Source of the DNA: a virus
Lineage: Duplodnaviria; Heunggongvirae; Uroviricota; Caudoviricetes
IMG/VR virus record: IMGVR_UViG_2706794689_000009
Direction: 5' to 3' (one strand)
DNA length: 39,305 nt
Below the pieces are notes generated by a model. The model saw only the letters and a list, made by a program, of their open reading frames with translations, was not told the origin of the DNA and searched no databases. Positions 522 through 39,100 of the stretch are shown in pieces. Positions within the stretch are counted from its first letter, which is position 1. Each line of letters opens with the position of its first letter. The translations under genes and the position numbers were made by a program.

Positions 522-680
522 CATTTGATACCGACAAGGGGTTTAGTGAAAGGAGGTGAAATCACCTGTAAGATACTGAAATAAAACAGGTGATGGCTAG
601 ATGTGCGGATAAGGTCTATTTGATACCGATTGTGCAATAATTAGTCATTTATTATAAAATCGGCAACTCATTTGATACTG
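522..680 (+). repeat. Left-end transposase-binding repeats, three copies of CATTTGATACYG (about 522-533, 616-628, 667-680)
   Basis: Directly visible repeated 12-14 nt motif. The reverse complement recurs three times at the right end (39031-39100). This is analogous to the L1-L3 and R1-R3 MuA binding sites of Mu. Confidence 0.6.
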
Positions 681-752
681 TGGTTTTAGTCTTTTAAGGC
701 GTTCCAAACAATGCGAAATACTCGATATAGTGCAAAATGCGGGCTAATGCTA

Positions 753-1298
753 TTAACCCGCTTTTGGTTCTACCGCGTTAGATTTGCGACTTCTCTCAGT
801 TTCTTCCAAAATCTCTCTGACGCGTTCGTCAGACATACCTTCAAGCTGTAATGCAGCTATTCTTTTCCTTCCTTCTAAGCGGATTAGATCTTGATTTTCA
901 GGCTCTAACAACCGAGCTAAGTACTTGGCTCCATTCAGAACCAAATTTTTCGATAGCTGCTCTAAGTCTTTTTCATCAAGTGCGCTGATAATCGTCATAA
1001 TTATCTTCTTGCTTTCATCTTGATTTTCCTTGATCTCACACCGATTCACTTGTGATGCATCACTGAATCCACATAGCCACTCAACACTTACTCCTTCGAT
1101 AGACGCAATCTGAAGGGCGACACTTAAGGATGGCTCAGTGCCACGAGACAGATAATTGTTTAGTGTTGAAAATGAAAGCCCCCAATCTCTTGCTGCAGCT
1201 CTGACGCTGCGGGAGCCAATCAGCCTTTTCAGACGCTCAGCAATGCTTTCTTTTCTACCACCAGGAAAAGAAAGAGATGTTGTTGTTTGCTTGTTCAT
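753..1298 (-). CDS. Prophage repressor (Mu c-like, HTH DNA-binding)
   Basis: 181-aa ORF divergent from ner/A/B at the left end. The N-terminal region RLKRLIGSRSVRAAARDWGLSFSTLNNYLSRG resembles an HTH. Position matches the Mu c repressor. Confidence 0.75.
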   Translation of the reverse strand: MNKQTTTSLSFPGGRKESIAERLKRLIGSRSVRAAARDWGLSFSTLNNYLSRGTEPSLSVALQIASIEGVSVEWLCGFSDASQVNRCEIKENQDESKKIIMTIISALDEKDLEQLSKNLVLNGAKYLARLLEPENQDLIRLEGRKRIAALQLEGMSDERVREILEETERSRKSNAVEPKAG

Positions 1299-1430
1299 TT
1301 TCTTTTCTTCCTATCAATTTGAAATTATTAACTTTTAGTGTTGTCAGCAACCATTGATCCACAATAGACAAAAGAAAGATGTTTTTTTTGCTTTACATGA
1401 AGCAGAAGTGGATCAATACTTATATCAAAC

Positions 1431-1454
1431 TTGATAACTAAGTTTAGTTATCAA
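1431..1454 (+). promoter_or_regulatory. Perfect palindromic operator candidate TTGATAACTAA-gt-TTAGTTATCAA in the repressor/ner divergent region
   Basis: 11-bp perfect inverted arms with a 2-bp spacer, about 30 bp upstream of the ner start. A second inverted pair TGATCCAC/GTGGATCA lies at about 1354-1415, and a TTTACA -35-like hexamer near 1392. Likely early promoter/operator region. Confidence 0.5.
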
Positions 1455-1483
1455 ATTTCGTAACTTTTTAGGATAGATGAATC

Positions 1484-1714
1484 ATGGCGAGAAATGAAGT
1501 TAAGCCTGATTGGCATCCTCAAAGAATTTTGGGGGAAGTCAGAGCCAGAGAAGGAAGCATGAGGGCGCTGGCCCGTAAAGCTGGCGTGGGTCAGAACAAT
1601 CTGTACAACGCGGTATACCGCCATGTTCCCAAGTATGAGGGGATTATCGCGGAATGCCTGGGGGTGCCGCCCGAGGAGATTTGGCCCAGCCGCTACATTC
1701 GTAAGGTCGCGTAA
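1484..1714 (+). CDS. ner: Ner-like DNA-binding early regulator
   Basis: 76 aa. Conserved motifs DWHPQRILGEVRAR, NNLYNAVYRHVPKYEGIIAECLGVPPEEIWPSRY match the Mu Ner/Nlp family. Sits immediately upstream of the transposase. Confidence 0.9.
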   Translation: MARNEVKPDWHPQRILGEVRAREGSMRALARKAGVGQNNLYNAVYRHVPKYEGIIAECLGVPPEEIWPSRYIRKVA

Positions 1715-1716
1715 TT

Positions 1717-3804
1717 ATGTTTGCTTCAGTTAAAGAACTGGTTGGATTACCGGGGATGCCGGGAACGGAGCAAGGCGTTCGCTATTCAATCAGGAAGTAT
1801 GCAACCAGCGAAACCAGCAGACGCCGCAAGAAAGGCGCTAAAGGTTTTGAATACAGCATTGACTGTTTACCTGAAGTGACACAGCAGGCATTACGCGAAC
1901 GTTATGCCCTGCAACTGATGACGCAAAAAGCCGATGAATCACCGGCTCCGGTGGTGACAAAGGCCAGACGCTCGTCTGCCGTGGTTGATGCGGTGGAGGC
2001 ATATCGCGGATCACCACAACTGATGGTCGAACGCCTCAATGCCCTGACTGAAAACCAGCGCCAGGTGGCAGACGCACGCATTGCGATCGTCAGTGAGGTG
2101 CTGAAATTCACGCAACAACCCGGTTTCAGCTGCGCTAAAGCTATCCGGTTCCTCGTTAACAGCCTGGCACGATCACAACTGGACGAGCGCATTGTGGCAA
2201 TGGTTGAGACGGCGAACGCCAAAAAGGGAAACAGCCGCGCGTTGAGTGAAATCACGCTGAAACGCTGGATTGCGGCCTTTAACAAGGCACAGAACGCCGC
2301 TGAACGCCTGCTTTTACTGGCACCGGGTAAACGCCAGGAAATAAAAGCCGAAGATATTAACTGGCTGCCCGAATTTCTGGCGCAGTATCGCCAGTCAAAC
2401 GGCCGACCAATGACCGAGGCTTACGAGGATTTTGTTGCTGAATGGCAGCACCGGCACGCTGATGAGCCTTATATGCTCGATATCATGCCCTCTTATGACA
2501 CCATTCGCCGCGCAATGAAGAAACTGCCGGAAGTGGTGAAACAAAAAGGCCGGGTAACTGGCAGTGAATACCGTCAGCTTGAGGGATTCACGCGCCGCGA
2601 CTGGTCCAGAATGCCGGTGAATTATGTCTGGATTGGTGACGGTCACGGCATGAAGCTGAAATGCGCGCACCCGGTTCACGGGCGGCCATTCGCACCGGAA
2701 GTGACCTTTGTTATCGACGGTGGCACGCGCTTTGTGGTGGGCTGGAGCCTTGACCTGGCTGAAAATGTTTTCGCCGTAGCCGGTGCCATACAGCACGGTA
2801 TTCGCCATCATGGCAAACCGTTTCTGTATTACTCGGATAATGGCTCCGGGGAAACCGCCGACGTCCTGGATAAGGAGATTGTGGGGATACTGCCACGACT
2901 GGGGATTAATCACCCGACAGGGATTGCCGGTAATCCGCAGGGACGGGGCATTATCGAACGGCTTAACCGCACATTACCGATGCGCATAGCCCGTAAATAC
3001 CGCACCTATTTCGGGAAAGGAGCAGATCGCGAGACGTTACGTAAAACCAACCGCGATTTACGCTCGGCATTCAGTGCCCTGCAACAGGGCAAACGGCTGA
3101 ACGCCCGGCAGCAGTCAGCGATGCGTGATTTACCGTCCTGGTCTGAACTGATTGATGCCATTCGTGACGGTGTTGAGTGGTACAACAACCGGCCGCACGA
3201 TGAATTACCCATGAAGCCGAACGGTAAACATTACAGCCCGGCGGAGTTCAGAAAAAAACGCCTGGCGGAAGAGGACACGGAAATTGAATGGCTGTCCGAT
3301 GTTGAACTGCGGGATATGTTCCGGCCGATGGTGGAGCGCCCTGTAAGACGCTGTGAAATACGCTGGCTGAATAATATTTACTACGCGCCCGAGCTGCGTG
3401 ACGAGCATGGCCGTAAGGTACTTATCAGCTATGACATTCATGATGCCGAACGAATTACCGTGCGCCGCCCGGATGGCAGCGTGATTTGCGAGGCGGTATG
3501 GGACGGCAATAAACGCGAAGCCTTCCCTGTCAGCGCGGAATACTACAAACAGCAGCAGCGCCTTAAAGGCATGCGTAAACGCGCAGAGGAAAAAATCCGT
3601 GATGCCGAGGATGAGGTTGTCAACGTGCTGGAGCACAAGCCGCAGGAGCCCTGGCTGGAAAACATATACCGCCCTGTGGGTAATACGGTGACCGTTCAGC
3701 AACCGGTCGCTGACGATGAACCTGATGAAGAATACGAGCGTAATTTCCAGCGGGGATTGCAACTGCTCGAAGCGAAATTAAAAGAAAGTGATCCGCTGGC
3801 CTGA
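1717..3804 (+). CDS. A: Mu-type DDE transposase A (MuA)
   Basis: 695-aa ORF with N-terminal DNA-binding region and central integrase-like core (VWIGDGHGMKLK...SDNGSGETADV). Position after ner. Confidence 0.93.
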   Translation: MFASVKELVGLPGMPGTEQGVRYSIRKYATSETSRRRKKGAKGFEYSIDCLPEVTQQALRERYALQLMTQKADESPAPVVTKARRSSAVVDAVEAYRGSPQLMVERLNALTENQRQVADARIAIVSEVLKFTQQPGFSCAKAIRFLVNSLARSQLDERIVAMVETANAKKGNSRALSEITLKRWIAAFNKAQNAAERLLLLAPGKRQEIKAEDINWLPEFLAQYRQSNGRPMTEAYEDFVAEWQHRHADEPYMLDIMPSYDTIRRAMKKLPEVVKQKGRVTGSEYRQLEGFTRRDWSRMPVNYVWIGDGHGMKLKCAHPVHGRPFAPEVTFVIDGGTRFVVGWSLDLAENVFAVAGAIQHGIRHHGKPFLYYSDNGSGETADVLDKEIVGILPRLGINHPTGIAGNPQGRGIIERLNRTLPMRIARKYRTYFGKGADRETLRKTNRDLRSAFSALQQGKRLNARQQSAMRDLPSWSELIDAIRDGVEWYNNRPHDELPMKPNGKHYSPAEFRKKRLAEEDTEIEWLSDVELRDMFRPMVERPVRRCEIRWLNNIYYAPELRDEHGRKVLISYDIHDAERITVRRPDGSVICEAVWDGNKREAFPVSAEYYKQQQRLKGMRKRAEEKIRDAEDEVVNVLEHKPQEPWLENIYRPVGNTVTVQQPVADDEPDEEYERNFQRGLQLLEAKLKESDPLA

Positions 3805-3886
3805 AATAAAAAAATAACCCGAGGGGTGACTCAGGTTATTTGAGGTTTCAGTCTCGGAGAATGCTGTCTCAAGCGAGGTGAATAAT

Positions 3887-4819
3887 ATGACCGATATTAA
3901 CGATGTAATCAAGACCATTGATGAACTTATTGATGGCGGCGTACTGACGCAGTATGCCATCGCCAGAGAGGCGGGAATTTCCGACGGCACATTATCGGCT
4001 TTCCGTAAGGGAAAATATAAAGGCGATAACGCTGCTGTGGCTGCTTCCCTGCGCTCCTGGTATGAGAACTGGAATAAACAAAGCGCACTGCCGGAACCGC
4101 CGCAGTTTGTGGAAACTCAGACAGTCCAGGAGCTGCGCGCACTGTTTCAGGCGGTTCGCCTGATGGGCTGTATTAACGTTATTGTGGGCGTACCGGGTGT
4201 GGGTAAAACGGCCACTGCCCGTAATTACTGCCAGGAGCAACCAAACACCTGGATGATCACCCTGTCACCCGCGCACTCCAGCGTCACGGAGTGTCTGCTG
4301 GAGCTGGCCGATGCGCTGGGGATTGATTACACCCGCGCGAACAAAGGGGCATTATCCCGCGCCATCCGCCGTCGCCTGATGGGAACGCGTGGACTGGTGA
4401 TTGTGGATGAGGCGGATCATCTTGGTATTGACGGTCTGGAGCAACTCCGGGCAATTCAGGACGCCACGGGGATCGGGATGGTGCTTATTGGTAACCCGCG
4501 CGGATTGTTTAAAGGTGGACGCCGCGCCTTTGATGATTTATCGCGCCTGTTCAGCCGTCTTGCCCGTACAAAACAACTTCGCAAGGCCAAAAAGGCGGAT
4601 GTGCTGGCCATTGCCATGGCGTGGGGGATCAGTGGTGAGGCCGAGCTGGCCGTCATGCAGGCTATCGCTGAAAAGCCGGGAGCGTTACGCGTTCTGACAC
4701 ATACGCTTAACCAGGCGTGGCTCACCGCCAGCGGTGAAGGCGCGGCGCTGACAGAAAAACATATTAATGCGGCCTTTAAAGAGGTTTATACCAACCCTGA
4801 ATTACTCTCACAGGTGTGA
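3887..4819 (+). CDS. B: Mu transposition ATPase B (MuB, AAA+ target DNA activator)
   Basis: Walker A GVPGVGKT and Walker B LVIVDEADHL. Overall co-linearity with Mu B (LPEPPQFVETQTV, KPGALRVL). ATG 3887 chosen after a GAGGTG ribosome-binding site; the frame opens at GTG 3878. Confidence 0.9.
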   Translation: MTDINDVIKTIDELIDGGVLTQYAIAREAGISDGTLSAFRKGKYKGDNAAVAASLRSWYENWNKQSALPEPPQFVETQTVQELRALFQAVRLMGCINVIVGVPGVGKTATARNYCQEQPNTWMITLSPAHSSVTECLLELADALGIDYTRANKGALSRAIRRRLMGTRGLVIVDEADHLGIDGLEQLRAIQDATGIGMVLIGNPRGLFKGGRRAFDDLSRLFSRLARTKQLRKAKKADVLAIAMAWGISGEAELAVMQAIAEKPGALRVLTHTLNQAWLTASGEGAALTEKHINAAFKEVYTNPELLSQV

Positions 4820-4821
4820 TT

Positions 4822-5043
4822 ATGGCGGTATTTAATATTCCTGATATTTACGGACGCTTTTACCTGGTTAATTTCGATAACGTGAAGGTGATTTCACTGG
4901 CCGAAAATAAAGAATGTGGCGATTTACTTTTTGAATTTAATGACCGCACACGAATGGTGATATCTGCCGGACTTGATCGCGAAGGTGCGACAGAAGTTTA
5001 CAGCGGAATATGCCGTTCTGTTGGTGCGAAACAAGTCAGCTAA
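4822..5043 (+). CDS. Small early protein in the Mu kil position (about 74 aa)
   Basis: ORF overlaps the B stop codon; size and position match Mu kil. Call is by position only, no recognisable motif. Confidence 0.45.
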   Translation: MAVFNIPDIYGRFYLVNFDNVKVISLAENKECGDLLFEFNDRTRMVISAGLDREGATEVYSGICRSVGAKQVS

Positions 5044-5310
5044 ATGAGGTGTTATATGAATATGCAATCCTGCGGTAACAAAATGAATTTATTCGACTCC
5101 CTGAACAGCGCGCGCCGTCTGACCGAACTTGCCGGTGCGGTACTGGAACGCAGTAAGCGCTATCCGCAACGTTTTGCACTGAAAACCACGCCGCCGGTAG
5201 GCAACGTGCAGGGAACCGGTGAAATTGAAATCACCATACAGACCAACGGCCTGCGCCGCCGTGTGAAGGCCACCCGCATCAGCGGCTGCACGGTTTACTG
5301 GGAGGTGTGA
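5044..5310 (+). CDS. Hypothetical early-region protein
   Basis: 88-aa ORF on the same strand, contiguous with neighbours; multiple possible ATG starts (5044/5056/5062). Confidence 0.45.
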   Translation: MRCYMNMQSCGNKMNLFDSLNSARRLTELAGAVLERSKRYPQRFALKTTPPVGNVQGTGEIEITIQTNGLRRRVKATRISGCTVYWEV

Positions 5311-5311
5311 G

Positions 5312-5593
5312 GTGAAAAAAAATCTCATTGCATGGGCGTGGTCGAGTGGTCTTATTGAGTTTGGTTACGTCCTGCCGGAAGGTGCATTGCCGATAGTTGC
5401 CGGAAAGCCTGCCACGGTACGGCATGTGATTGAGGTTATGGCGCGTCATGGACGTGATGAACAGGAGCAGTTACTGGTTCCGGGGATACCGGAAGCGGTG
5501 ACGGAGGAAGAAGCCTTTAATGCCATGATTCGGTTCTGCCGTGAGGTTAGACGCCGGGTCAGTTATCCAAACAGAACGAGGACCAGAGGATGA
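5312..5593 (+). CDS. Hypothetical early-region protein (GTG start)
   Basis: 93-aa ORF tightly packed between neighbours; its end overlaps the next start. Confidence 0.4.
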   Translation: MKKNLIAWAWSSGLIEFGYVLPEGALPIVAGKPATVRHVIEVMARHGRDEQEQLLVPGIPEAVTEEEAFNAMIRFCREVRRRVSYPNRTRTRG

Positions 5594-5862
5594 GTAAAGT
5601 CGTACGCATTATTTTCGAATACAAGGAAGATGTTATCTGCAAAAACTCTGATGGCAGCACGCACAGAGGGGTAAGTCTGGATATACGTTCAACCGGAATA
5701 AAGAAGAAAGATAATGGACCCGCCATGATTTTTGGGGTGGTTATGCTGGCAGAAAGCAGAAACTTCGCAGAGTTTGTGGCAATGAAAGCCAGTGCATTCA
5801 TGAAAGACAGAGGCATGGCTTCCGGGGTTATTAACGGTAATGAATTTAATCAACAGGGGTAA
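5590..5862 (+). CDS. Hypothetical early-region protein, tandem paralog copy 1
   Basis: 90 aa, begins MSKVVRIIFEYKEDV. The next gene has a near-identical N-terminus. Confidence 0.55.
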   Translation: MSKVVRIIFEYKEDVICKNSDGSTHRGVSLDIRSTGIKKKDNGPAMIFGVVMLAESRNFAEFVAMKASAFMKDRGMASGVINGNEFNQQG

Positions 5863-5866
5863 TTCC

Positions 5867-6160
5867 ATGAGCAAAGTACGCGTTATTTTTGAATTTAATC
5901 ATGTTTCGCATGACGAAAAGTTGGCAGGCAATGACTGTGTTGAAGTGCATGAAAAGATTGGAGTGGATGTGAAAACAGAACGTGATACGGATAACAGGCC
6001 GACGTCACTCTGTGACGTTTATGCAAGTATTCTCCAGTATCACAGTCCTGCAATTATTCAGTTTCTCTCAGCGGAATTTCAGGCATCTGCACAGTCTTTT
6101 GGAGCGGATGCCATCATTAAACGCCACCGCGTGCATAAAGCATCAGGCACACTGCAATAA
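5867..6160 (+). CDS. Hypothetical early-region protein, tandem paralog copy 2
   Basis: 98 aa from ATG 5867, begins MSKVRVIFEFNHV. Starts 5 nt after the stop of copy 1, with an AGGGG ribosome-binding site. Confidence 0.55.
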   Translation: MSKVRVIFEFNHVSHDEKLAGNDCVEVHEKIGVDVKTERDTDNRPTSLCDVYASILQYHSPAIIQFLSAEFQASAQSFGADAIIKRHRVHKASGTLQ

Positions 6161-6171
6161 GGAAAAACAAA

Positions 6172-6702
6172 ATGGCTAAACGCGTTACAAAATTAAAGGC
6201 CGCAGCCGAGGCGGCACCGCAGACCCGGGAAGAAGTCAGCCGTGATATCCGCACCCTGGGAGATATTCAGCGAGAGGCGCTGCGCCTGGAAACGGCGATG
6301 AATGACGAAGTGGCAGAAATCACCGCCCGTTATACGCCGCAGATTGAAAATCTTAAAAAGCAAATCAAAGTGCTTTTTAAAGGGATTCAGGACTGGTGCA
6401 AAACCAACCGTGATGAGCTGACGAACGGCGGCAAAACCAAAACAGCCAATCTGACCACCGGAACGGTGTCATGGCGGCTGGGAACGCCATCATGCAGCGT
6501 CAGCCGTGATGTGGAAGGTGTGATTGAAATGCTGCGCCGTATGGGGCTTGAGCGTTTCATCCGCACGAAAGAGGAAGTGAACAAGGAAGCCGTCCTGGCG
6601 GAGCCGGATGCTGTGAAAGGCATTGCCGGTATCAAGGTGAATAAAGGCGCTGAAAGTTTTTATGTCGAGCCTTTTGAACAGGACGCCGGACTGAATAAAT
6701 AA
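6172..6702 (+). CDS. gam: Gam-like host-nuclease inhibitor (DNA-end binding)
   Basis: 176 aa. Coiled-coil N-terminus and motifs TGTVSWRLGTPS, FIRTKEEVNKEA typical of the Mu Gam family. Position in the early region fits. Confidence 0.8.
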   Translation: MAKRVTKLKAAAEAAPQTREEVSRDIRTLGDIQREALRLETAMNDEVAEITARYTPQIENLKKQIKVLFKGIQDWCKTNRDELTNGGKTKTANLTTGTVSWRLGTPSCSVSRDVEGVIEMLRRMGLERFIRTKEEVNKEAVLAEPDAVKGIAGIKVNKGAESFYVEPFEQDAGLNK

Positions 6703-6847
6703 CACCGCATTAATCAATTAAATATCACTTCATTTTAATTATGGCGCTCGCGTCAGGGGACTGCTTGCGCCTGAAAACAGAAAATAAGGGTTAAGAAATA
6801 TGAAATACGTTTATATCGTCATTAATAATGTGGTGGGGAAATAAATC

Positions 6848-7381
6848 ATGATTGATGCAAAAGTGCTTGAAGGGGTTAAAAACTGGCTGTGTATTTATGG
6901 CCGCCTGACCTGCGGTGTACTGGCTGAAAAAATGAATATGCCGCCATCCTCCATGGTTTATTTTCTGCGTGATGCGGTTGATGCAGGCGTGCTGACGGAA
7001 TGTAACGGTTTTTATGATATTCCGCGTCCCCGCCCGGTGCAGCCGGTTCGTCGCAAATGCAGCCAGGAATCTGCGGCTGATGATGTTCAGTGGTGCGGCT
7101 TCAGAAAATCCCTGCCATGGATTGAGGGGCATGATATTCCGTCGATGGCGTGGGAATTTGCTCAGGGCGTTCTGACCTGTGAAACCGTTTATGTGGTGGC
7201 TGAAGTTGATGAGCAGGCCATGAAAGAAGGCGTGCCCCAGTTTGTGATGGCGTATATCGACATACGCCTGGGCGTCATTATCTGCGGTTTAAGCGGCTGG
7301 AATATCACTGAACATGTTCTGCGCTACCTGATTGTTGACCGGACAGCAGCGCCTGCCGGGATATCTGCGGAGGTGGCGTAA
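6848..7381 (+). CDS. Hypothetical early-region protein
   Basis: 177-aa ORF; stop overlaps the next start (translational coupling). Confidence 0.5.
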   Translation: MIDAKVLEGVKNWLCIYGRLTCGVLAEKMNMPPSSMVYFLRDAVDAGVLTECNGFYDIPRPRPVQPVRRKCSQESAADDVQWCGFRKSLPWIEGHDIPSMAWEFAQGVLTCETVYVVAEVDEQAMKEGVPQFVMAYIDIRLGVIICGLSGWNITEHVLRYLIVDRTAAPAGISAEVA

Positions 7382-7896
7382 TGTTCTTTAAAACATCAAA
7401 CCCTTCCGCGCTGGCTGCGTGGCAAAAATACCAGCAGGACTGCCAGAAAGTTAAGGATGAGGCAAAACGCCTTGAGGCCGTGCTGAATGTTGCGTGCCGG
7501 TCGGTATTTGTATCCGGTATCAGTGGATTTTACTTTAAGGGACTGCGTTTTACGGAGGACAAATATCCTTTTCATCGCGACTTATGGCGAAAACCGACTG
7601 CGTCGAATGGCTGGAGCTGCACACCGCGCACATCACGTATCCCTAAAACCCTGCGTGTTGCCTCTGATGAACTGAACAGTCTGTGGCGTGAATATTCGCC
7701 CGTCACGTATGCCAGAACCGATGCGCTGTTGTTCTGGTTGGGTATTGATTTCTCGGCAATCCTGTTTGGCCCTGTGAAGTGGTTCTGCGTTGACGATGTG
7801 ATTTACCTTCAGTGCGGCGTAAAACCCGCAAAACAGAAAATGACCGAAATACTGTCTGATGAGTTTTATGCTGCTGAAAAGCGAGTCAGGGGGTGA
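7381..7896 (+). CDS. Hypothetical early-region protein
   Basis: 171-aa ORF in the operon; no recognisable motif. Confidence 0.5.
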   Translation: MFFKTSNPSALAAWQKYQQDCQKVKDEAKRLEAVLNVACRSVFVSGISGFYFKGLRFTEDKYPFHRDLWRKPTASNGWSCTPRTSRIPKTLRVASDELNSLWREYSPVTYARTDALLFWLGIDFSAILFGPVKWFCVDDVIYLQCGVKPAKQKMTEILSDEFYAAEKRVRG

Positions 7897-7899
7897 TGC

Positions 7900-8451
7900 A
7901 TGATGAAATTACAACCCATGGGACTAAAAGGTCGCGCCCCCGCTCATGTCCGTCCGTGGACACCTGAAGAAGATGCGCTGCTGATTGCGCTTTATTCATC
8001 CACCCCGGTTAAGGATATTGCTGCCAGAATAAAAAGAACTGTCTGGGCTGTATATAACCGGACTGGTGTATTGCGCAGTTCATACCCGGAGTTACTGAAA
8101 TATAAACACCCAAGATTTACACCTGATGAAGATAAGTTTATTCGAAAAAATGCCAGAACAATGACCTGCCAGCAAATGGGAGAATATCTCGGACGTAATA
8201 AAGATTCTGTCAGATGTCGGGCAGGAATGATTGGTGCTGGATTAACAAAGTGCGGAGAGTTACGCCCCGGCACGCGCATATCTGATGATGATGTACGTCT
8301 TATACGTGAGCTGCGTGATTCCGATTACCCACGCCGTCTGTCATTCCGGGAAATTGGCGAAAAGTTTGGAATATCTGAACATTCTGCTCACGCAGTTTAT
8401 TACCGTCGCCGGACTGCCGAGGACGCTGTATTACGGGAGTTAACGCCATGA
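7900..8451 (+). CDS. Putative DNA-binding protein with two Myb/SANT-like W/FTPEED repeats and a C-terminal HTH-like segment
   Basis: Translation shows WTPEEDALLIALY...VWAVYNR and FTPDEDKFIRKNAR...VRCRAGM repeats, followed by LSFREIGEKFGISEHSAHAVYYRR. Confidence 0.5.
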   Translation: MMKLQPMGLKGRAPAHVRPWTPEEDALLIALYSSTPVKDIAARIKRTVWAVYNRTGVLRSSYPELLKYKHPRFTPDEDKFIRKNARTMTCQQMGEYLGRNKDSVRCRAGMIGAGLTKCGELRPGTRISDDDVRLIRELRDSDYPRRLSFREIGEKFGISEHSAHAVYYRRRTAEDAVLRELTP

Positions 8452-8780: not shown

Positions 8781-8916
8781 GCAAATTGTTGAATGTCCCA
8801 CCTGTGGAAATGAGGACCCGGAGTATCTGAAAGAGTGCCCACATTGTGGTGAGATAAAATGTAACCACTGCGATATGGGCGACGACACTGCATGTATAAA
8901 TTGTGAGGATGAATAA
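8773..8916 (+). CDS. Zinc-ribbon mini-protein (47 aa, four Cys pairs)
   Basis: Hand translation MDEQIVECPTCGNEDPEYLKECPHCGEIKCNHCDMGDDTACINCEDE. ATG overlaps the upstream stop. Below the size cut-off of the ORF track. Confidence 0.4.
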   Translation: MDEQIVECPTCGNEDPEYLKECPHCGEIKCNHCDMGDDTACINCEDE

Positions 8917-8917
8917 T

Positions 8918-9425: not shown

Positions 9426-9455
9426 AGATTTTTCCTTTTATGTTAATTGACATGG

Positions 9456-9487: not shown

Positions 9488-9495
9488 CCACGATA

Positions 9496-10018: not shown

Positions 10019-10023
10019 CCCCA

Positions 10024-31525: not shown

Positions 31526-32076
31526 CCCTGACCCCGCATCAGCGCGCCCTGTTGCAGTTACTGCCTGACGGGCTGGCATGGGACAAGCGTCCGTCATCCG
31601 TACTGGCATCATTATGTCTGGGCCTCAGTCATTCGACAGCGCGTGTATCCTGGACGGGTAAACAGCTGCTTGCCGAGCGTTTCCCTGACACGTCGCGCCT
31701 GCTGCTGGAAGACTGGGAGCGTTATCTCGGGCTTCCCGAGTGTGATATGGCCGGAGCCACCCTCACGGAGCGACAGCGTTATGCCGGAAATAAATACCGG
31801 ATGAAGCCCTCGCTGAACCGTGAATTTTATATCCGGTTTGCGGCGGAGTTTGGTTATCAGATTGACATTCAGCCCTCACCGGATTCGCAGTGGGTCAGTA
31901 TTGTCACGATTAACAGTGAAACCGGCTACCGGAATATGAATGTGCTGGATGATATTCTCACGCCGCTGCGTATTTATGAAGGCGGTGCGCTGGAATGTAT
32001 TCTGAACCGTTATAAGCCTGCATGGCAGACGTTTATTTACGTTTATGCAAACAGCCATGAAGAGGAGACTATTTAA
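31516..32076 (+). CDS. Tail protein (Mu gp48 position)
   Basis: 186 aa between the J-like gene and the fibre gene. Confidence 0.7.
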
Positions 32077-32957
32077 TGTTTCATGTTGATAATAATTCCG
32101 GCGTGGCGAATATGCCTGCGCTGGCACCGGCGCAGAGTAATACCACCACCTGGTTTACCGAAGGTGACGGACAAAAAGGTATCAGCTGGATTGGTCAGGA
32201 CTGGCTGAATATTCTCCAGGCCGAACTGCTGAATATTCTGGCTGAAGCCAGTATTCAGCCGGATAAGGCGCAGTTAAACCAGCTTACGCTGTCCATTAAA
32301 GCCATTATCGCTGCGAATGCCTTTTCCCGGAAAAATAACCTGAAAGAAATTGCTGATGCCGGTGCGGAGGCCCAGCGTCTGGCCCGTGGTTATCTTGGTC
32401 TGGGGACGCTTGCCACAAAAAACAGTCTTGGTCCCGCTGACGTTAATGCCCTGGCGAAGGATCAGAATCTCGCCGACCTGGAGAATAAGGGAACCGCCCG
32501 TAATAATCTGGATGTTTACAGCAAAAGCGAAGGTGATAACCGTTACCTGCGCAGGGAGCAGAACGGCGCAGACATTCCGGATAAAGGGGCTTTTATCGAT
32601 AACGTCGGTTTACGGGAAACGGTAAACAGGGCGGCGAATGCCCTGCCATCGGACGGCACCGCCGTTGCCGCGAACAGGCTGGCAAATGCCCACACAATTA
32701 ATGGTGTTCCCTTTGACGGGACGCAGGATATCACTATCTCATCAGGAACAGTAACCGCCATAAGACTGGGGTCGGTGACCGCACATATGCCCGGAACATG
32801 GGAAAGCTGGGATCTGAATCTGGGGGGCGGCAATGTTCTTACCGGAATTAAAGTACAGGATGTCGGTAAGAATACGGCAGATAACGTCGGCGGCGTGTAT
32901 TACCGGCCGTTGCAGTATCTGTTAAATGGAGCATGGGTGACGGCTGCAAGTATATAA
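32076..32957 (+). CDS. Tail fibre protein S: constant part up to about 32698, then current-orientation variable C-terminus
   Basis: 293 aa. The crossover motif [12 protein letters not shown] at residues 208-218 coincides with a 30-bp inverted repeat. Confidence 0.75.
32699..32728 (+). repeat. gix-like inversion crossover site, left copy
   Basis: TAATGGTGTTCCCTTTGACGGGACGCAGGA; its reverse complement occurs at 33811-33840 with one mismatch. Confidence 0.65.
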
Positions 32958-32988
32958 TGATATTCAGAAGGCCTTCCGGCCTTCTTTA

Positions 32989-33471
32989 TTACTGTGGCTG
33001 CTCAGGCCATTTAATGGCGTTAAATTCAGCTTCTGTTTTAATGGCGGGTAGTTCCATTTTCTTCACCTGACTGATGTATGCCATCCATTGGGTAAGTGCT
33101 GCTCTGTCTTCATCGCTGATGGTGCCCAGTTGTAGCTCCGTTCTCCAGTCATTAATTTTTTCATATGCCTGATTAAGATATGACTGGCGCATTGCTTCCA
33201 GTTTTCTTGCGTAGTTAACCGGAATACGGGAGATTATGCCATTATCAAACTTCCAGTTTCCTGAAATATCCGTGCCTTCAGGGAGTTCATCGACCTCAAC
33301 CACAGAAAACCCCGCAGGATACAGCGCCGAGGCGTCCTGTGATATTGAGCAGATAACGCCGCTGTCAGGTGTTATGCAAAGTTTATATTTTTTGGTGAAT
33401 AATGGCAGGGATTCGTAGAAATCCTTACCATCTTCACTCTGGAAATACTGAACATTATTACCATATGGCAT
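32989..33471 (-). CDS. Tail fibre assembly protein (U'-like), inside the invertible segment
   Basis: 160 aa, minus strand. The conserved C-terminal motif ISDEDRAALTQWMAYISQVKKMELPAI...KWPEQPQ is typical of tail fibre assembly chaperones. Confidence 0.75.
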   Translation of the reverse strand: MPYGNNVQYFQSEDGKDFYESLPLFTKKYKLCITPDSGVICSISQDASALYPAGFSVVEVDELPEGTDISGNWKFDNGIISRIPVNYARKLEAMRQSYLNQAYEKINDWRTELQLGTISDEDRAALTQWMAYISQVKKMELPAIKTEAEFNAIKWPEQPQ

Positions 33472-33736
33472 ATNNNNNNNNNNNNNNNNNNNNNNNNNNN
33501 NNNNNNNNNNNNNNNNNNNNNNNNNNNNNNNNNNNNNNNNNNNNNNNNNNNNNNNNNNNNNNNNNNNNNNNNNNNNNNNNNNNNNNNNNNNNNNNNNNNN
33601 NNNNNNNNNNNNNNNNNNNNNNNNNNNNNNNNNNNNNNNNNNNNNNNNNNNNNNNNNNNNNNNNNNNNNNNNNNNNNNNNNNNNNNNNNNNNNNNNNNNN
33701 NNNNNNNNNNNNNNNNNNNNNNNNNNNNNNNNNNNN

Positions 33737-33840
33737 CTGCTCCCAGCCTGATATCCTGGATATATCGGGAATCCGCATCCTGCTGTGTTATACCAGAAGT
33801 GATGTTTATGTCCTGCGTCCCGTCAAAGGGAACCCCATTA
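33737..33840 (-). CDS. Alternative tail fibre variable segment (Sv'-like), fragment visible between N-masks
   Basis: Minus-strand translation [34 protein letters not shown] starts at the right crossover repeat and shares [11 protein letters not shown] with S. Confidence 0.5.
33811..33840 (-). repeat. gix-like inversion crossover site, right copy (may extend into the N-mask)
   Basis: Reverse complement of 32699-32728 with one mismatch. Confidence 0.65.
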
Positions 33841-34090
33841 NNNNNNNNNNNNNNNNNNNNNNNNNNNNNNNNNNNNNNNNNNNNNNNNNNNNNNNNNNNN
33901 NNNNNNNNNNNNNNNNNNNNNNNNNNNNNNNNNNNNNNNNNNNNNNNNNNNNNNNNNNNNNNNNNNNNNNNNNNNNNNNNNNNNNNNNNNNNNNNNNNNN
34001 NNNNNNNNNNNNNNNNNNNNNNNNNNNNNNNNNNNNNNNNNNNNNNNNNNNNNNNNNNNNNNNNNNNNNNNNNNNNNNNNNNNNNNNNNN

Positions 34091-34620
34091 CGGCGCTACA
34101 AAGAAATGCGCTGGAATGTGCAGGATGTGAGCTGTTTTTCGAAGACAGAATAAGCGGTAAGACAAGGGAGCGTCCCGGACTTAAACGCGCATTAAAGCGA
34201 CTCCGGCCAGGGGATACCCTGCTGGTCTGGAAACTGGATCGCCTTGGACGCAGTATGCAGCACCTTGTCCTTTTAACAGAAGAACTCCGGCAACGCGGCG
34301 TTAACTTCCGCAGCATTACGGACAATATTGATACATCCACTCCCATGGGACGTTTCTTTTTCCATATAATGGGCGCGCTGGCGGAAATGGAGCGGGAACT
34401 CATTATTGAACGTACACGCGCGGGTCTTGCTGCTGCCCGTGCTCAGGGGCGTCATGGCGGCAGACCTCAGAAACTGACAGAGAAAGAGCGGGAGCAAATC
34501 GCCCGTTTGCTGGCTAATGGCGAGTCCCGTAAACAAATCGCACTGATATTTGATATTGGCCTTTCCACCCTTTATCGTTATTTTCCTGCCTCACCAGCTC
34601 CGTCACCAAAAGTACCGTGA
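34091..34620 (+). CDS. gin: Serine recombinase DNA invertase (Gin/Hin/Cin/Pin family); 5' end inside N-mask
   Basis: Visible translation LQRNALECAGCE...DRPGLKRALKRL..GDTLLVWKLDRLGRSM.HL...ELRQRGVNFRSITDNIDTSTPMGRFFFHIMGALAEMERELIIERT..GLAAARAQGR.GGRP is near co-linear with Mu Gin. The catalytic serine region is masked. Confidence 0.9.
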
Positions 34621-34705
34621 CGCTTTTTTGAATTTCCGCAAAACACATATTTTTCAGCGGTCGCTATTCTGACTCTGTTTAATTCAGAAACAGGCAGAAA
34701 AGACG

Positions 34706-36760
34706 ATGTCAGACTCCAAGTGGAAAATGCTCTCCGCCATGCCCGGAGAGTTTTCAGTCAAGGTTGCCGGTGGCACGGTGGCATTTATTGAAAGCCCTTT
34801 CCGCCCTTCGGGTAATAAAGGGGGGATCACCTTCGCAGACTGCGTGATCCGCTTCAGCACGAAAGAGCCATTATGGGTAATGCCGGTATCCGGTAATCCC
34901 AGTGCAGAAATCACCAGTTCAGGCGTGACTGGCATCATTCCAATCACATCTGACGTGGCCGGAACGCTCACGCCCTCCGACTGGAATGCACCGGATAACG
35001 CCGGGCCTTCCGGTAGCACGAATGGCAGCAGTTCAGAGCCGGAATATTACTTTGTTGTCATTCTCGCGGGTCAGTCAAATGGCATGGCCTACGGCGAGGG
35101 GCTGCCGTTACCGGATTCGTTTGACCGCCCGGACCCACGCATTAAGCAACTGGCACGCCGCAGTACGGTAACGCCCAACGGTACGTCGTGTACATACAAC
35201 GACATCATTCCGGCAGACCACTGCCTGCATGATGTTCAGGATATGAGCGGGATAAACCACCCGAAAGCTGATCTGGCAAAAGGCCAGTACGGGACTGTCG
35301 GTCAGGGGTTGCATATTGCCAAAAAACTGCTTCCCTATATCCCACAGAATGCCGGGATACTTCTGGTGCCCTGTTGTCGTGGCGGGTCAGCATTCACCAC
35401 TGGAGCCGACGGCTCATTCAGTGAGGCCAGCGGTGCTTCCGCTGATTCTTCACGCTGGGGGGCCGGTAAACCTCTGTATCAGGACCTGGTAAGCCGCACC
35501 AAAGTCGCGCTGGCGAAAAACCCGAAAAACAAACTTCTGGCTGTGGTCTGGATGCAGGGAGAGGCAGACCTTGCCTCAGGAAGCCAGCAGCATAATAGTT
35601 TATTCACGGCCATGGTTCAGCAGTTCAGAACTGACCTGGCTCCGCTTGCTGCGCAGTGCGTGAGTGGAAATGCCACCACGGTGCCGTGGATTTGCGGTGA
35701 TACCACGTATTACTGGAAAAACGCTGGCACCGATAAATATGAGGCAGTATACGGTGGCTACAAAGGCAAGGAAGCACAGAAAATTTTCTTTGTACCGTTC
35801 CTGACGGATGAGAATGGACAGAGCACGCCAACGAATGCTCCGGCGGAAGACCCGGATATTGTGGCTGTCGGGTATTACGGTGCAGCATCCCGAACCCAGG
35901 GCAGTTTTGTTTCGACACAGCGTGACAGCCATTTCAGCTCATGGGCACGCAGGGGCGTCATTTCAGACCGTCTGGCCTCAGCTATTATGCTCCATGCAGG
36001 GCGCACGGCTGAACTGATGCGTGGGCAGACCGTGACACCACCGGATGAGAAGCCGTCACCTGATACACCATCAAAACCGTCCACGCCACCCGCAGACACC
36101 ACGACGATGAGTACGCTATTTGCTTACCGGGCATCTGAGTCTGAAGGACGGTTGACACCACAGGGTTGGGCTGCCGGAGGTGGCAAGGCTCAAATCGTGG
36201 ATGATGCCGGAGCCAGCGGGGGTAAGGCAATGAAACTGACCAAGGAAACAGGAAGAGCCCCCTGGTACCTTGAGCATGATGCTGGTAATGGTGCGGACCT
36301 GCTGGGTAAAGGTGGTCTTGTCAGTTGTCGTTTTAAACTCGATGGCGCGCTTACGGCTAATCAGTACGCACTGGCGCTGTACTGGCCGGTTTCTGCCCTG
36401 CCGCAAGGGGTTACTCTGGAAGGAAATGCCGGTCATAACCTGCTGGCATCGTTCTACGTACAGAGCGATGCCACAGACCTTAACGTGATGTATCACAAAG
36501 GAAACACGGCGCAGAACACGAAGCTGGGGTCATTCGGCGCATTTAATAACGAATGGCATACGCTGGGCTTCCGTTTTGCCGGTAACAACAGTATTGAGGT
36601 GACGCCGGTCATTGATGGTAAGGACGGGACACCATTCATGCTGTCGCAGTCTCCGGTCGGCACGTTTACGGCAGACAAGTTGCGCGTGACCGATATCACT
36701 AAAAATGCGACTTACCCGGTACTGATTGACAGTATCGTGGTGGAAGTGAATAACGCGTAA
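34706..36760 (+). CDS. Putative SGNH/SASA-family esterase (sialate O-acetylesterase-like) with Pro/Thr/Ser linker and C-terminal beta-rich domain
   Basis: 684 aa. Motif VVILAGQSNGMAYGEG (GQSN block of the SASA/SGNH fold), linker PPDEKPSPDTPSKPSTPPADTTT, then a roughly 220-aa C-terminal domain. Not part of the Mu backbone. Confidence 0.55.
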   Translation: MSDSKWKMLSAMPGEFSVKVAGGTVAFIESPFRPSGNKGGITFADCVIRFSTKEPLWVMPVSGNPSAEITSSGVTGIIPITSDVAGTLTPSDWNAPDNAGPSGSTNGSSSEPEYYFVVILAGQSNGMAYGEGLPLPDSFDRPDPRIKQLARRSTVTPNGTSCTYNDIIPADHCLHDVQDMSGINHPKADLAKGQYGTVGQGLHIAKKLLPYIPQNAGILLVPCCRGGSAFTTGADGSFSEASGASADSSRWGAGKPLYQDLVSRTKVALAKNPKNKLLAVVWMQGEADLASGSQQHNSLFTAMVQQFRTDLAPLAAQCVSGNATTVPWICGDTTYYWKNAGTDKYEAVYGGYKGKEAQKIFFVPFLTDENGQSTPTNAPAEDPDIVAVGYYGAASRTQGSFVSTQRDSHFSSWARRGVISDRLASAIMLHAGRTAELMRGQTVTPPDEKPSPDTPSKPSTPPADTTTMSTLFAYRASESEGRLTPQGWAAGGGKAQIVDDAGASGGKAMKLTKETGRAPWYLEHDAGNGADLLGKGGLVSCRFKLDGALTANQYALALYWPVSALPQGVTLEGNAGHNLLASFYVQSDATDLNVMYHKGNTAQNTKLGSFGAFNNEWHTLGFRFAGNNSIEVTPVIDGKDGTPFMLSQSPVGTFTADKLRVTDITKNATYPVLIDSIVVEVNNA

Positions 36761-36776
36761 GCAGGATAAAAAAATG

Positions 36777-36809
36777 CCGCCGGTAAGGGAAAACAAGAAA
36801 CCGGCGGCA
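36777..36809. terminator. GC-rich hairpin GCCGCCGG-(17 nt)-CCGGCGGC flanked by an A-run on plus and a T-run on minus
   Basis: 8-bp perfect stem immediately after the esterase stop. A U-tract follows only in minus orientation, so it is probably a minus-strand or bidirectional terminator. Confidence 0.4.
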
Positions 36810-36904
36810 AAAAGATCGTTATATCCAAAGCAAAAAATGCAGTGCACCTTTTTACCTAACAGATATTACCGGTGTCAACACCATGTCAATAATTGGGAGG
36901 GATA

Positions 36905-37087
36905 ATGACATTTTTACAGCTTATTTTATTGTATTTCTGCACGGCAGTATGTGCGTTATATCTGGTGAGTGGTGGTTATAAGGCCATCAGAAATTATGTT
37001 CGCCGCAAAATTGAGGACGCAGCAGCTGAAAAACTCAGTAAAACAGCGCAGGTAACTCCGCTCCCAAAAGACCCGACCCAGCCCTGA
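36905..37087 (+). CDS. Small single-pass membrane protein (about 60 aa)
   Basis: GGGAGGG ribosome-binding site then ATG. TM helix FLQLILLYFCTAVCALYLV followed by a basic tail. Confidence 0.4.
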   Translation: MTFLQLILLYFCTAVCALYLVSGGYKAIRNYVRRKIEDAAAEKLSKTAQVTPLPKDPTQP

Positions 37088-37122
37088 TTGCAGGGCTTTA
37101 TTCCCGCATAAGGAGGATATAC

Positions 37123-37377
37123 ATGCCAGAAATTAAAGGCACCGTCACTGAAGACCTGGTAAAACAGGCACTGTATTCCGGTGAAGTAAATAAGTTGCTG
37201 AAAGCGCAGGTCCGCAAGGATTTTGAGGCACAAATCGACACTTACGTTGATGAAGTGCTGGCAAAACTTATTGGGCCAGCAGTTGCGGCCAGTGATGCTG
37301 ATAATGAGCCGAAAACCGACGCGCAGCCAGAGCAACCAGACCCGGCTCAGCCCGGAACTGACAGTACCATGATGTAA
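37123..37377 (+). CDS. Small acidic protein (84 aa)
   Basis: Near-consensus TAAGGAGGA Shine-Dalgarno 7 nt before the ATG. Helical N-terminus, acidic Pro-rich tail. Confidence 0.45.
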   Translation: MPEIKGTVTEDLVKQALYSGEVNKLLKAQVRKDFEAQIDTYVDEVLAKLIGPAVAASDADNEPKTDAQPEQPDPAQPGTDSTMM

Positions 37378-37385
37378 CAATACAA

Positions 37386-37463
37386 ACCGGTGGTGTCCTC
37401 TGCCGGTTTGACACTAATGAAAACATCTTTGCCGCTATCCAGCCATATGTAATCGCTGGATAG
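37386..37463. terminator. Two hairpins between convergent genes (AAACCGG...CCGGTTT, and 9-bp inverted repeat CTATCCAGC...GCTGGATAG)
   Basis: Inverted repeats directly visible between the 37123-37377 plus-strand gene and the 37545-37838 minus-strand gene. Confidence 0.35.
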
Positions 37464-37544
37464 TATTTCGTATTCAGAAATATAGCTGCTTATGGAGCAG
37501 TCAATCCTGCTTCCCCATCCGGGCAGGCAAATGAACCGGTATCA

Positions 37545-37838
37545 TTAGTCCGATTCACGCTTTTGTAGAATCGTTCCCAGAATGCTATACAGCTCATTAG
37601 CCTGTTGCTCCATCATTGAGACGGAGGCTATACGGTGCAAAGTGATTTCAGGAGGTGGCACACCTCCATCTTCTTGCTGTGGAGGAAAAACATAAGATTT
37701 AATAAAAAAGTTGAAGCATATGAACTCTCCCGCACTCGAACTGTATTTGCAGGCATCTGAATAATCGGAAAAATAATCATTATAGATTTCCGCATTTTCA
37801 ATCATTTTTCGATTTCTCGTCGTTACATGATTGTCCAT
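37545..37838 (-). CDS. Hypothetical AT-rich protein, divergent from com-mom
   Basis: 97-aa ORF with markedly lower GC than the phage backbone. Its start faces the GATC-containing mom control region. Confidence 0.45.
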   Translation of the reverse strand: MDNHVTTRNRKMIENAEIYNDYFSDYSDACKYSSSAGEFICFNFFIKSYVFPPQQEDGGVPPPEITLHRIASVSMMEQQANELYSILGTILQKRESD

Positions 37839-37961
37839 AGCAGCCTCTTACGCTGGCAATTAACCAATTGACTTCTATAAATTAGTTGATTTGTTTGCTT
37901 TGCGGTATTCAAATGTACAATCATTCAGCACTTATGCGTTACAGCACCGTTTAAAATTAGT

Positions 37962-38047
37962 GATCAAACTCATAAATTTTCGCTAATGACATTTCGTGTT
38001 ATTTGTTGTATCAATTAAATAAATCAAATCGATCGTTTTTGTCGATC
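37962..38047 (+). promoter_or_regulatory. mom upstream control region with three GATC (Dam) sites at about 37962, 38031 and 38044
   Basis: AT-rich intergenic region immediately upstream of com with GATC sites clustered, including the palindromic GTCGATCGAT. In Mu, the mom promoter is controlled by Dam methylation of three upstream GATC sites (OxyR binding). Confidence 0.45.
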
Positions 38048-38094
38048 GATTGAGTGATAAAGATATCAACAACAAAGCAGGAGGTTATGCGGCC

Positions 38095-38295
38095 ATGTAT
38101 CGAAACATACGGTGCCGACATTGTAACAAGCTACTGGCACGAGCCAGCTTCAGTTATCTGGAAGTTAAATGTCCGCGCTGTAAAACCCTCAATCAAATCA
38201 CATCTCAGAGCGCCACAGAGCACCCCACATACACAAGGAAATCCTGTCGTGGGGAACAGAAAGCAAGTTACATCCCGTATCATCAGCACGCCTGA
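38095..38295 (+). CDS. com: Com zinc-finger translational activator of mom
   Basis: From ATG 38095 (AGGAGG 10 nt upstream): [35 protein letters not shown]...EHPT, co-linear with Mu Com including the CxxC-(16)-CxxC zinc finger. Confidence 0.8.
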
Positions 38296-38986
38296 ACTTA
38301 TTCACTATAACGACAATATCGTCGGTTATGGCTCCCGTGAGTTACGGGTTGAGACAATAAGTTGCTGGCTGGCCCGGCTGGTCGTCGTCAATAAACATTA
38401 CAGCCATCGTTTCGTAAATAATTCCTACCTTCATCTGGGCATATTTTCAGAACGGGAGCTGGTTGGCGTAATGCAATGGGGTTATGCCCTTAATCCAAAC
38501 AATGGTGCACGCGTCGTAACTGGCACGCAGAACCGCGAATATATGGAGCTTAACCGGTTATGGCTGCATGACTGTATGCCGAGAAACTCCGAATCAAGGG
38601 CAATCAGTTACGCGCTCAAACTAATCAGACAACTTTATCCGCAGGTGCAGTGGGTTCAGTCGTTTGCAGATGAGCGTTGTGGCTGTCTTGGTGTCGTGTA
38701 CCAGGCAAGCAATTTTGATTATGTAGGCAGTCATGAAACAACATTCTATGAACTTGATGGCGAGTGGTATCACGAGATTTGCAAGAATGCAATCAAACGA
38801 GGAGGACAGCGAGGTGAACATCTGCGGGCTAATATCGACAGAGCCAGTGTTCATAAATTCCGTCAGTTTCGTTACATCCGGTTTCTGGACAAGAGAGCCA
38901 GAAAACGCCTTAACACAAAGCTATTCAAAGTCCAGCCTTACCCAAAACCACAAACAGTTAAAACTGGTTTGAAAGAGAGTGAATGA
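38249..38986 (+). CDS. mom: Mom-like DNA modification protein (start inferred as GTG 38249)
   Basis: Long frame overlapping the 3' end of com as in Mu; about 245 aa from GTG 38249. An AAGGAA ribosome-binding site and the GTG lie inside a stem CCCCAC...GTGGGG (about 38223-38254), resembling the Mu mom translation-inhibition structure that Com opens. No sequence-level identification of Mom was possible. Confidence 0.6.
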
Positions 38987-39030
38987 ACGCTTAAAAACTC
39001 ATTCTAAAACTCAAAAGAAAAGCGCCGATT

Positions 39031-39100
39031 TAGTATCAAATAAGTTGCGTATCGGCGTTTTTCAGCGGTATCAAATGAAATGCAAATCGGTATCAAAAAA
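39031..39100 (-). repeat. Right-end transposase-binding repeats, three copies of the reverse-complement motif (about 39031-39042, 39066-39077, 39088-39100)
   Basis: TAGTATCAAATA, CGGTATCAAATG, CGGTATCAAAAA are inverted relative to the left-end CATTTGATACCG copies. Confidence 0.6.

Follow-up and report, generated by a model that had tools for sequence, protein, structure and literature searches.

Probable transposase end-binding sites, TA termini and a 4-bp target duplication in an Sp18-like transposable prophage of the Mu type

The DNA considered here is a viral sequence of 39,305 nucleotides (nt) from the IMG/VR database (record IMGVR_UViG_2706794689_000009), and the whole of that stretch is called the window below. 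It holds a 38,608 base pair (bp) Mu-like (Sp18-like) transposable prophage at positions 507-39114, inserted within the tnpB gene of an IS66-family element. Close to each end of the prophage lie three copies of a short repeat built around the 8-mer TTTGATAC, and the question raised by the locus is what these six repeats are for. They are very probably the end-binding (att) sites of the MuA-family transposase encoded by the prophage itself. The overall architecture is the one expected for a Mu-like phage; the recognition sequence is new, and the TA ends and 4-bp scar of the element are unusual. An earlier note, made from the letters of the window, had described the repeats, likened their layout to Mu attL and attR and proposed that they define the transposase recognition sequence of this phage lineage.

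Termini and target-site duplication

Comparison of the window junctions with an empty IS66 site places the termini at 5'-TA...TA-3', flanked by a 4-bp GACA duplication:

507..39114, + strand: whole prophage, 5'-TATAACC...GCGCTATA-3', delimited by homology to independent E. coli insertions and by the empty IS66 site
503..506: left copy of the 4-bp target-site duplication, GACA (a single GACA in the uninterrupted IS66 copy)
39115..39118: right copy of the 4-bp target-site duplication, GACA (GACA on both sides of the element)

Homology with independent insertions in other E. coli genomes begins at 506/507 and ends at 39114, and the IS66-family element accounts for the sequence on either side (1-506 and 39115-39305), with tnpB as the left flank (Pfam TnpB_IS66, E 1.2e-37) and the start of tnpC as the right flank. 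The uninterrupted IS66 copy reads ...gactggcGACAgcccaagcgg... and contains one GACA. At the window junctions the sequence is ...gactggcGACA followed by TATAACC at the left, and GCGCTATA followed by GACAgcctaagcgg at the right. A 5- or 6-bp duplication with shifted termini was considered and rejected: the flanking repeats are identical under this parsing alone, and only one GACA stands in the empty site. The prophage truncates the 3' end of the IS66-family tnpB; the same insertion element is intact on an O104:H4 plasmid (L206).

The duplication was surveyed in the window (503-511 and 39110-39118) and in loci L001-L003, L072, L073, L200, L201, L204 and L025 with L148. It measured 4 bp in 10 of 10 independent insertions (GACA, AACA, GACG, TACG, GTGA, TGTG, ATCA, TTCA, CGCG and GGTA). 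Insertions of the family are found at many different chromosomal loci, each with its flanking duplication. Copies at least 99.6% identical to the window element occupy sgrR, bcsA, a diguanylate cyclase gene and other loci in unrelated E. coli strains, and copies at 93-96% identity are present in other E. coli strains, including O157:H7, and also inside Shiga toxin (Stx) phages. Because near-identical copies stand at different loci in unrelated strains, the element is an active transposable prophage, of the kind named Sp18 in O157 Sakai. Published accounts of Sp18 in the open-access literature treat it at gene level only.

The canonical terminal 5'-TG...CA-3' of Mu-type phages is absent from the window, which has 5'-TA...TA-3'. 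A left 5'-TA is shared by the lineage of the window, by a clade of relatives with different end sites (class 2, described below) and by the lineage of L201 and a Yersinia phage, and many close relatives, the O157 prophage among them, have 5'-TG at the left and ...TA-3' at the right. At the right end of the relatives the dinucleotide is mostly TA and rarely TG (L093, L121). The right-terminal 11 nt of Mu (TGAAGCGGCGC) are recognisably homologous to those of the prophages (TATAGCGCGGC and TAAAGCGCGCA); this puts the termini in register and shows that position 2 is really A, not G. Olo Ndela et al. (2021, PMC8705779) give the length of the duplication as 5 bp for Mu and 6 bp for B3; by their account TG-CA ends were the rule in all Mu- and B3-like (pro)phages described up to that time, and the TA-TA ends of Leptospira prophages were new.

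Six inward-pointing sites

The six terminal repeats, each set within an inferred 22-bp transposase site, and the one internal copy of the core lie as follows:

512..533, + strand: L1, inferred 22-bp transposase site (nt 6-27 from the left terminus), end-distal core TTTGATACCG at 524-533
607..628, + strand: L2, inferred 22-bp site, core TTTGATACCG at 619-628
659..680, + strand: L3, inferred 22-bp site, core TTTGATACTG at 671-680
39088..39109, - strand: R1, inferred 22-bp site (nt 6-27 from the right terminus), core TTTGATACCG at 39088-39097
39066..39087, - strand: R2, abutting R1 (nt 28-49), core TTTGATACCG at 39066-39075
39031..39052, - strand: R3, oriented as R1 and R2 and 35 bp further inward, core TTTGATACTA at 39031-39040
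20300..20309, + strand: solitary internal TTTGATACCG, in the major head gene (codons F-F-D-T-E)

The pattern TTTGATACYG has six exact matches in the window against 0.19 expected, a number reached in none of 100 shuffles; the matches start at 524, 619 and 671 (+), at 39066 and 39088 (-), and internally at 20300 (+). The 8-mer TTTGATAC has seven matches against 0.76 expected, likewise beyond every shuffle. Six of the seven are terminal, three of them within 174 bp of the left terminus and three within 84 bp of the right, all pointing inward, and the seventh is the copy at 20300. The motif does not recur at a similar frequency elsewhere in the genome, that internal copy standing alone.

Counted from the left terminus the cores occupy nt 18-27, 113-122 and 165-174, and from the right terminus nt 18-27, 40-49 and 75-84, so that the cores of L1 and R1 both sit at nt 18-27 from their own terminus. 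Orientation is uniform within each end relative to the terminus, which makes the two ends mutually inverted. A repeat search independently finds two families of three copies each, one of 12 nt (ATTTGATACCGA) at the left, spaced by 95 and 52, and one of 16 nt at the right, spaced by 35 and 22; the 12-mer ATTTGATACCGA is exact at L1 and L2 only. The coordinates and strands of the six terminal copies thus bear out what the earlier note had said of three sites per end and of two inverted ends. Its TTTGATACYG fits five of the terminal copies and fails at the third right one (39031-39040, - strand), which reads TTTGATACTA and falls outside the literal Y-G pattern. Its right-hand spacings (0, 22 and 57) are exact, and its left-hand ones (0, 94 and 145) become 0, 95 and 147.

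R3 lies in the 21-nt loop of a 13-nt inverted repeat (GAAAAGCGCCGAT / ATCGGCGTTTTTC, 39017-39063) situated just downstream of mom. The structure looks like a terminator hairpin that overlaps a transposase site.

The copy at 20300 is almost exactly in the middle of the prophage (51% of its length), and Mu carries a strong gyrase site near the phage centre. As a functional central site the copy was rejected: it encodes F-F-D-T-E, its proximal half is poor, and its occurrence is compatible with chance (P ~0.17).

Conservation among relatives

Relatives were represented by the left ends of 66 IMG/VR loci and by both ends of eight complete E. coli prophages, with extra right ends obtained by pattern scan. 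Of the matches from a scan of viral contigs for GTATCAAA-N14-GTATCAAA, about a dozen were genuine right ends and over 100 were unrelated arrays resembling iterons. Viral contigs scanned for TTCAAGATAA-N12-TTCAAGATAA gave unrelated iteron arrays only, and the class-2 right end came from an E. coli genome. A transposase scan of genome contigs gave two loci only.

All relatives with a transposase at least 79% identical to that of the window retain TTTGATAC at L1, L2, L3, R1, R2 and R3. Among non-redundant relatives the mean pairwise identity of the six cores is 0.90-1.00, as against 0.45 in the stretch before L2, 0.58 in the L2-L3 spacer, 0.37 in the R2-R3 spacer and 0.40 in the sequence after R3. 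A motif search across related prophage ends, which the earlier note had suggested as a check, therefore finds the cores kept where the surroundings of L2, L3 and R3 have diverged. In a position matrix of 48 unique sites, TTTGATA carries 2 bits per position, the C that follows carries 1.85, and the Y and R after it carry about 1 bit each.

One stretch between sites has a history of its own:

534..606, + strand: L1-L2 spacer, with a palindrome, AGGTGAAATCACCT, at 554-567 and a repeated CAGGTGA (513-519 and 587-593)

Mean identity for nt 28-90 is 94% among relatives that share the head module of the window. Where the head and terminase genes are different ones (L200, L201 and Yersinia phage vB_YpM_5), the spacer is instead homologous to the Mu pac region (CCGGGAGGA..GGATTA..CGGGAT.TGATGGGAT). 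This comparison suggests that the L1-L2 spacer holds the packaging site; it is possibly a pac site or else a region bent by a host factor.

A sister class with other sites and one divergent transposase segment

Eight relatives whose transposases are 71-77% identical to that of the window (L004, L005, L042, L045, L046, L051, L052 and L200) are without TTTGATAC at their ends. At the left ends of this class 2 the sequence TTCAAGATA(A) is present three times, first at nt 18 and with an L2-L3 spacing of 52 bp, as in the window. The right end of L200, a complete prophage, has TTCAAGATA three times, at nt 18, 40 and 75, which reproduces the 22- and 35-bp spacing of the window. All six cores have accordingly been replaced by another sequence at matching positions.

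The replacement goes with one segment of the transposase. By sliding identity, residues ~118-197 of three class-2 proteins are 33-42% identical to the window protein, compared with 60-75% for the class-1 proteins of L201 and L039; residues 198-437 are 82-97% identical throughout both classes. Within the divergent segment, a helix with TLKRW is accompanied by three copies of TTTGATAC in 27 of 27 loci, and one with PLYQW by three copies of TYCAAGATA in 6 of 6. L052, an apparent exception to this pairing, is explained by TTTGATAT repeats in its operator region.

The helix in question can be placed tentatively on MuA. A profile of 59 diverse homologues matches the MuA transpososome structure 4FCY (E 3e-24) in an alignment that spans MuA residues ~136-346, including the I-beta helix-turn-helix and I-gamma. 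In it, transposase residues ~176-190 of the window (LSEITLKRWIAAFNK, encoded at nt ~2242-2286) stand opposite the MuA I-beta helix-turn-helix (VSASTLRDKYYQVQK), and the conserved region after them stands opposite I-gamma. Compared directly by BLASTP, the transposase and MuA are colinear and 23% identical over the full length (E 1e-13). In MuA, I-beta reportedly binds the end-distal half-site, the better conserved of the two, and I-gamma binds the end-proximal one. Here the distal core is the half with 2 bits per position, and it switches together with the helix that aligns to I-beta; the proximal half-site is similar in both classes, and so is the I-gamma-like region. To judge from the alignment and the covariation, the half-site pattern matches that of MuA, with I-beta distal and I-gamma proximal.

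The transposase of L042 (IMGVR_UViG_2513237361_000012) is chimeric: its first ~37 residues are class-1-like, and residues ~118-197, the helix and the end sites are of class 2. DNA-binding modules thus appear to have been exchanged by recombination, the first ~37 residues corresponding to the enhancer-binding I-alpha-like domain. E. coli FDAARGOS_943 (NZ_CP065615.1) carries one TTTGATAC-class and one TTCAAGATA-class prophage of the family (L207 and L208), a co-residence compatible with orthogonal end specificities.

The proposal of the earlier note that the sites define the transposase recognition sequence of the lineage is supported by the conservation of the cores, by the swap to TTCAAGATA, and by the covariation with the helix-turn-helix aligned to I-beta.

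Comparison with Mu and other transposition systems

Mu end sites were read from accession AF083977. The likeness to Mu attL and attR noticed earlier stands: in the prophage the inner limits of the conserved half-sites fall at nt 27, 122 and 174 (left end) and at nt 27, 49 and 84 (right end). In Mu, the RCGAAA motif starts at nt 21, 126 and 166 on the left and at nt 21 and 43 on the right, these 6-mers ending at nt 26, 131 and 171 and at nt 26 and 48, and the third right site is inverted (TTTCGY, nt 57). L1, R1 and R2 of the prophage consequently end 1 nt beyond the Mu 6-mers, and L3 ends 3 nt beyond. At the level of sequence, both phages have three sites of ~22 bp per end, with L1 and R1 at nt 6-27 and R2 abutting R1 at nt 28-49. 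In both, a long spacer separates L1 from L2 and L3, L3 lies at nearly the same distance from the terminus, and it is the end-distal half-site that is conserved. Gene order is shared as well, and the transposase is colinear with MuA, at an identity of only 23%.

Other features set the prophage apart from Mu. Its L2 is ~10 bp (about one helical turn) nearer the end, and its R3 is direct and 13 bp from R2, whereas the third right site of Mu is inverted and close to R2. Its termini are TA...TA in place of TG...CA, and its duplication is 4 bp in place of 5 bp. Its repressor is of the XRE type (HTH_3). The site sequences are without similarity: TTTGATACYR is unlike the RCGAAA(A)-containing sites of Mu, in agreement with the remark in the earlier note that the core differs from the Mu consensus.

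The sister clade (E. coli VL40, L200; Shigella flexneri SFBU1023, L004) is like the window in having cores at nt 18, right-hand spacings of +22 and +35, 52 bp from L2 to L3, TA...TA termini, a 4-bp duplication and a transposase core 85-95% identical. It differs in its core sequence (TTCAAGATA(A)), in its I-beta-like helix (ISRDPLYQWVLKYNQ, against LSEITLKRWIAAFNK in the window) and in its L1-L2 spacing, which is 71 bp (95 bp in the window) and is filled by a spacer resembling the Mu pac region.

Transposable prophages of Leptospira (B3/Tn552-like) share the non-canonical 5'-TA...TA-3' termini, and have a 6-bp duplication and a B3-type transposase (PMC8705779). Their hosts belong to a different phylum, and the E. 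coli family has a 4-bp duplication and mixed TA/TG ends. Several ~22-bp transposase sites, asymmetric between the two ends, are also a feature of Tn7 and CRISPR-associated transposons (TnsB), and the transposase family profile matches TnsB (E 2.8e-17). Tn7 differs in its three left and four right sites, its 5-bp duplication, its TGT...ACA ends and its TnsA/TnsC machinery, and it is not a phage.

Weighing the interpretation

Several points count against reading the six repeats as transposase sites of this construction. The upstream, end-proximal half (~G[C/G]RAWTYA) is weakly conserved, at 0.2-0.9 bits per position. Many unrelated phage contigs (L074-L153) contain arrays of TTTGATAC with periods of 11 or 22 bp, apparently iterons of the replication type; the motif alone is therefore not diagnostic, and the 8-mer is evidently reused by unrelated DNA-binding systems. 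The 27 of 27 and 6 of 6 pairings of helix and motif overstate the independent support, since the loci represent few lineages (~8 in class 1, ~3 in class 2). The half-sites are matched with subdomains through homology to MuA at ~23% identity, and an AlphaFold2 model of the transposase, built from 10 sequences at least 79% identical, is unusable beyond I-alpha (predicted local distance difference test 42, predicted template modelling score 0.20). A search of the open-access literature found no paper that describes the termini, the target duplication or the transposase sites of the E. coli family.

Among the alternatives, the one that survives best keeps the transposase as the binding protein and changes the division of labour from that of Mu: either the I-gamma-like subdomain reads the core, or L1, R1 and R2 alone are functional and L2, L3 and R3 are relics or other signals. 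In its favour are the remoteness of the subdomain alignment and the poor AlphaFold2 model, the displacement of L2 by ~10 bp relative to Mu, the direct orientation of R3, and the enclosure of R3 by the 13-nt inverted repeat, in the loop of the terminator-like hairpin after mom. Against it, the six cores are equally conserved across lineages and switch together in the sister clade, and the covarying segment aligns to I-beta and not to I-gamma, the I-gamma-like region and the proximal half-site being conserved between the classes. We regard this alternative as unlikely.

The repeats might instead bind the prophage repressor or another immunity or regulatory protein, so that the ends would be silent or paired in the lysogen. 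L3 is only ~70 bp from the end of the repressor gene (753-1298), which lends this idea some appeal. The window repressor, however, shares 42% identity with its counterpart in the O157 Sp18-like prophage (L204), where the end motif is the same, and 38% with the repressor of L200, where the motif is different; the motif therefore does not track the repressor. The operator region (1299-1483) has different repeats (TATCAAAYTT..) and palindromes, and the end motif covaries with a transposase segment. Such a role is quite improbable.

Still less credence is given to sites for a host protein (IHF-like) or to replication-type iterons unconnected with the prophage's own transposase. The reverse complement GTATCAAA does contain WATCAA, which resembles the IHF core, and the iteron arrays of unrelated viral contigs share the 8-mer. 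Both motif classes nevertheless occur in the same host species and even in one genome (FDAARGOS_943), so a host factor does not explain the switch of motif, and the six sites do not preserve the 3' element of IHF sites (TTR following a gap of 4 nt). The constant distance of 18 nt from either terminus indicates end recognition, and so does the 22-bp step by which R2 abuts R1, as in Mu.

The repeats could also be put down to chance or to the composition of the non-coding ends, given that these are AT-rich and that an identical 10-mer arises by chance in coding sequence at 20300. That reading is effectively refuted by the shuffles, none of which reached the observed count, and by conservation, the positions being identical at both ends, kept in diverged relatives and coherently replaced in the sister clade.

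Proposed mechanism

With the six repeats taken as end-binding sites of the MuA-family transposase, a mechanism can be proposed in which physical binding, the pairing of subdomains with half-sites and the roles of individual sites are all modelled on Mu. Each site would be bipartite, ~22 bp long and read by tandem helix-turn-helix subdomains: the conserved half away from the terminus (TTTGATACYR) by the I-beta-like helix-turn-helix at transposase residues ~176-190, and the weak half nearer the terminus (~G[C/G]RAWTYA) by an I-gamma-like subdomain at residues ~205-280. Transposase bound to L1 and R1 (nt 6-27) would set the active site at the terminal YA-3' dinucleotide, here TA, and R2, abutting R1, would supply the third core subunit. 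L2, L3 and R3 may serve as accessory sites that aid the assembly of a synaptic complex, which would be asymmetric and span a bent L1-L2 spacer. Target DNA would be brought in by the MuB-like ATPase, and attack of the two 3'-OH ends on phosphates 4 bp apart would produce the 4-bp duplication.

Gene content and other features

The genes that adjoin the left-end sites are these:

753-1298, - strand: XRE-type (HTH_3) repressor (Pfam)
1484-1714: Ner-like HTH_35 protein (Pfam)
1717..3804, + strand: MuA-family DDE transposase, 695 amino acids (Pfam HTH_Tnp_Mu_1 and Mu-transpos_C)
3878..4819, + strand: MuB-like AAA+ target-selection ATPase (Pfam Phage-MuB_C, E 7.8e-25, and AAA_22)

The transposase and MuB-like ATPase genes thus adjoin the left end of the prophage. 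Downstream of them lie Mu-like head and tail genes, the right end carries Com and Mom (the latter at E 1.6e-77), and the gene order is that of Mu: repressor, ner, A, B ... com, mom. In the gap between the repressor and ner genes, positions 1423-1465 hold repeats (TATCAAACTTGATAACT and TATCAAATTTCGTAACT) and palindromes unlike the end motif, which are candidate repressor or enhancer sites.

No RNA genes were found in the window by Rfam or ARAGORN. In relatives, RefSeq annotates a 'tRNA-OTHER' in an intergenic gap (L001, 17974-18053) that corresponds to window positions ~17985-18064 (- strand), where ARAGORN and Rfam are blank.

Significance

Sp18-like prophages occur widely in E. coli, with O157 and other Shiga-toxin-producing strains among their hosts, and are mobile within genomes. 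No earlier description of their ends and recognition sites seems to exist. The termini (TA or TG...TA), the 4-bp scar and the six sites allow the prophages, and the genes that they disrupt, to be annotated precisely. Two natural specificity classes that differ mainly in one helix-turn-helix provide a ready test of how MuA-family transposases read their ends, and the two could give orthogonal tools of the mini-Mu type. How the geometry of the DDE active site fixes the length of the duplication is a question to which both the 4-bp stagger and the acceptance of TA ends are relevant. With three variant features and one natural swap of specificity, the family is moderately interesting for work on transposition.

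We suggest tentatively, at somewhat short of even confidence, that the E. coli/Shigella/Yersinia family forms a distinct branch of the Mu type, marked by cleavage after TA-3' (or CA-3'), a 4-bp stagger and a swappable I-beta module, in which recombination of modules has given rise to at least two orthogonal pairs of transposase and sites (TTTGATAC and TTCAAGATA). If this is true, two such prophages could reside in the same cell, and their orthogonal pairs would keep them from mobilising each other.

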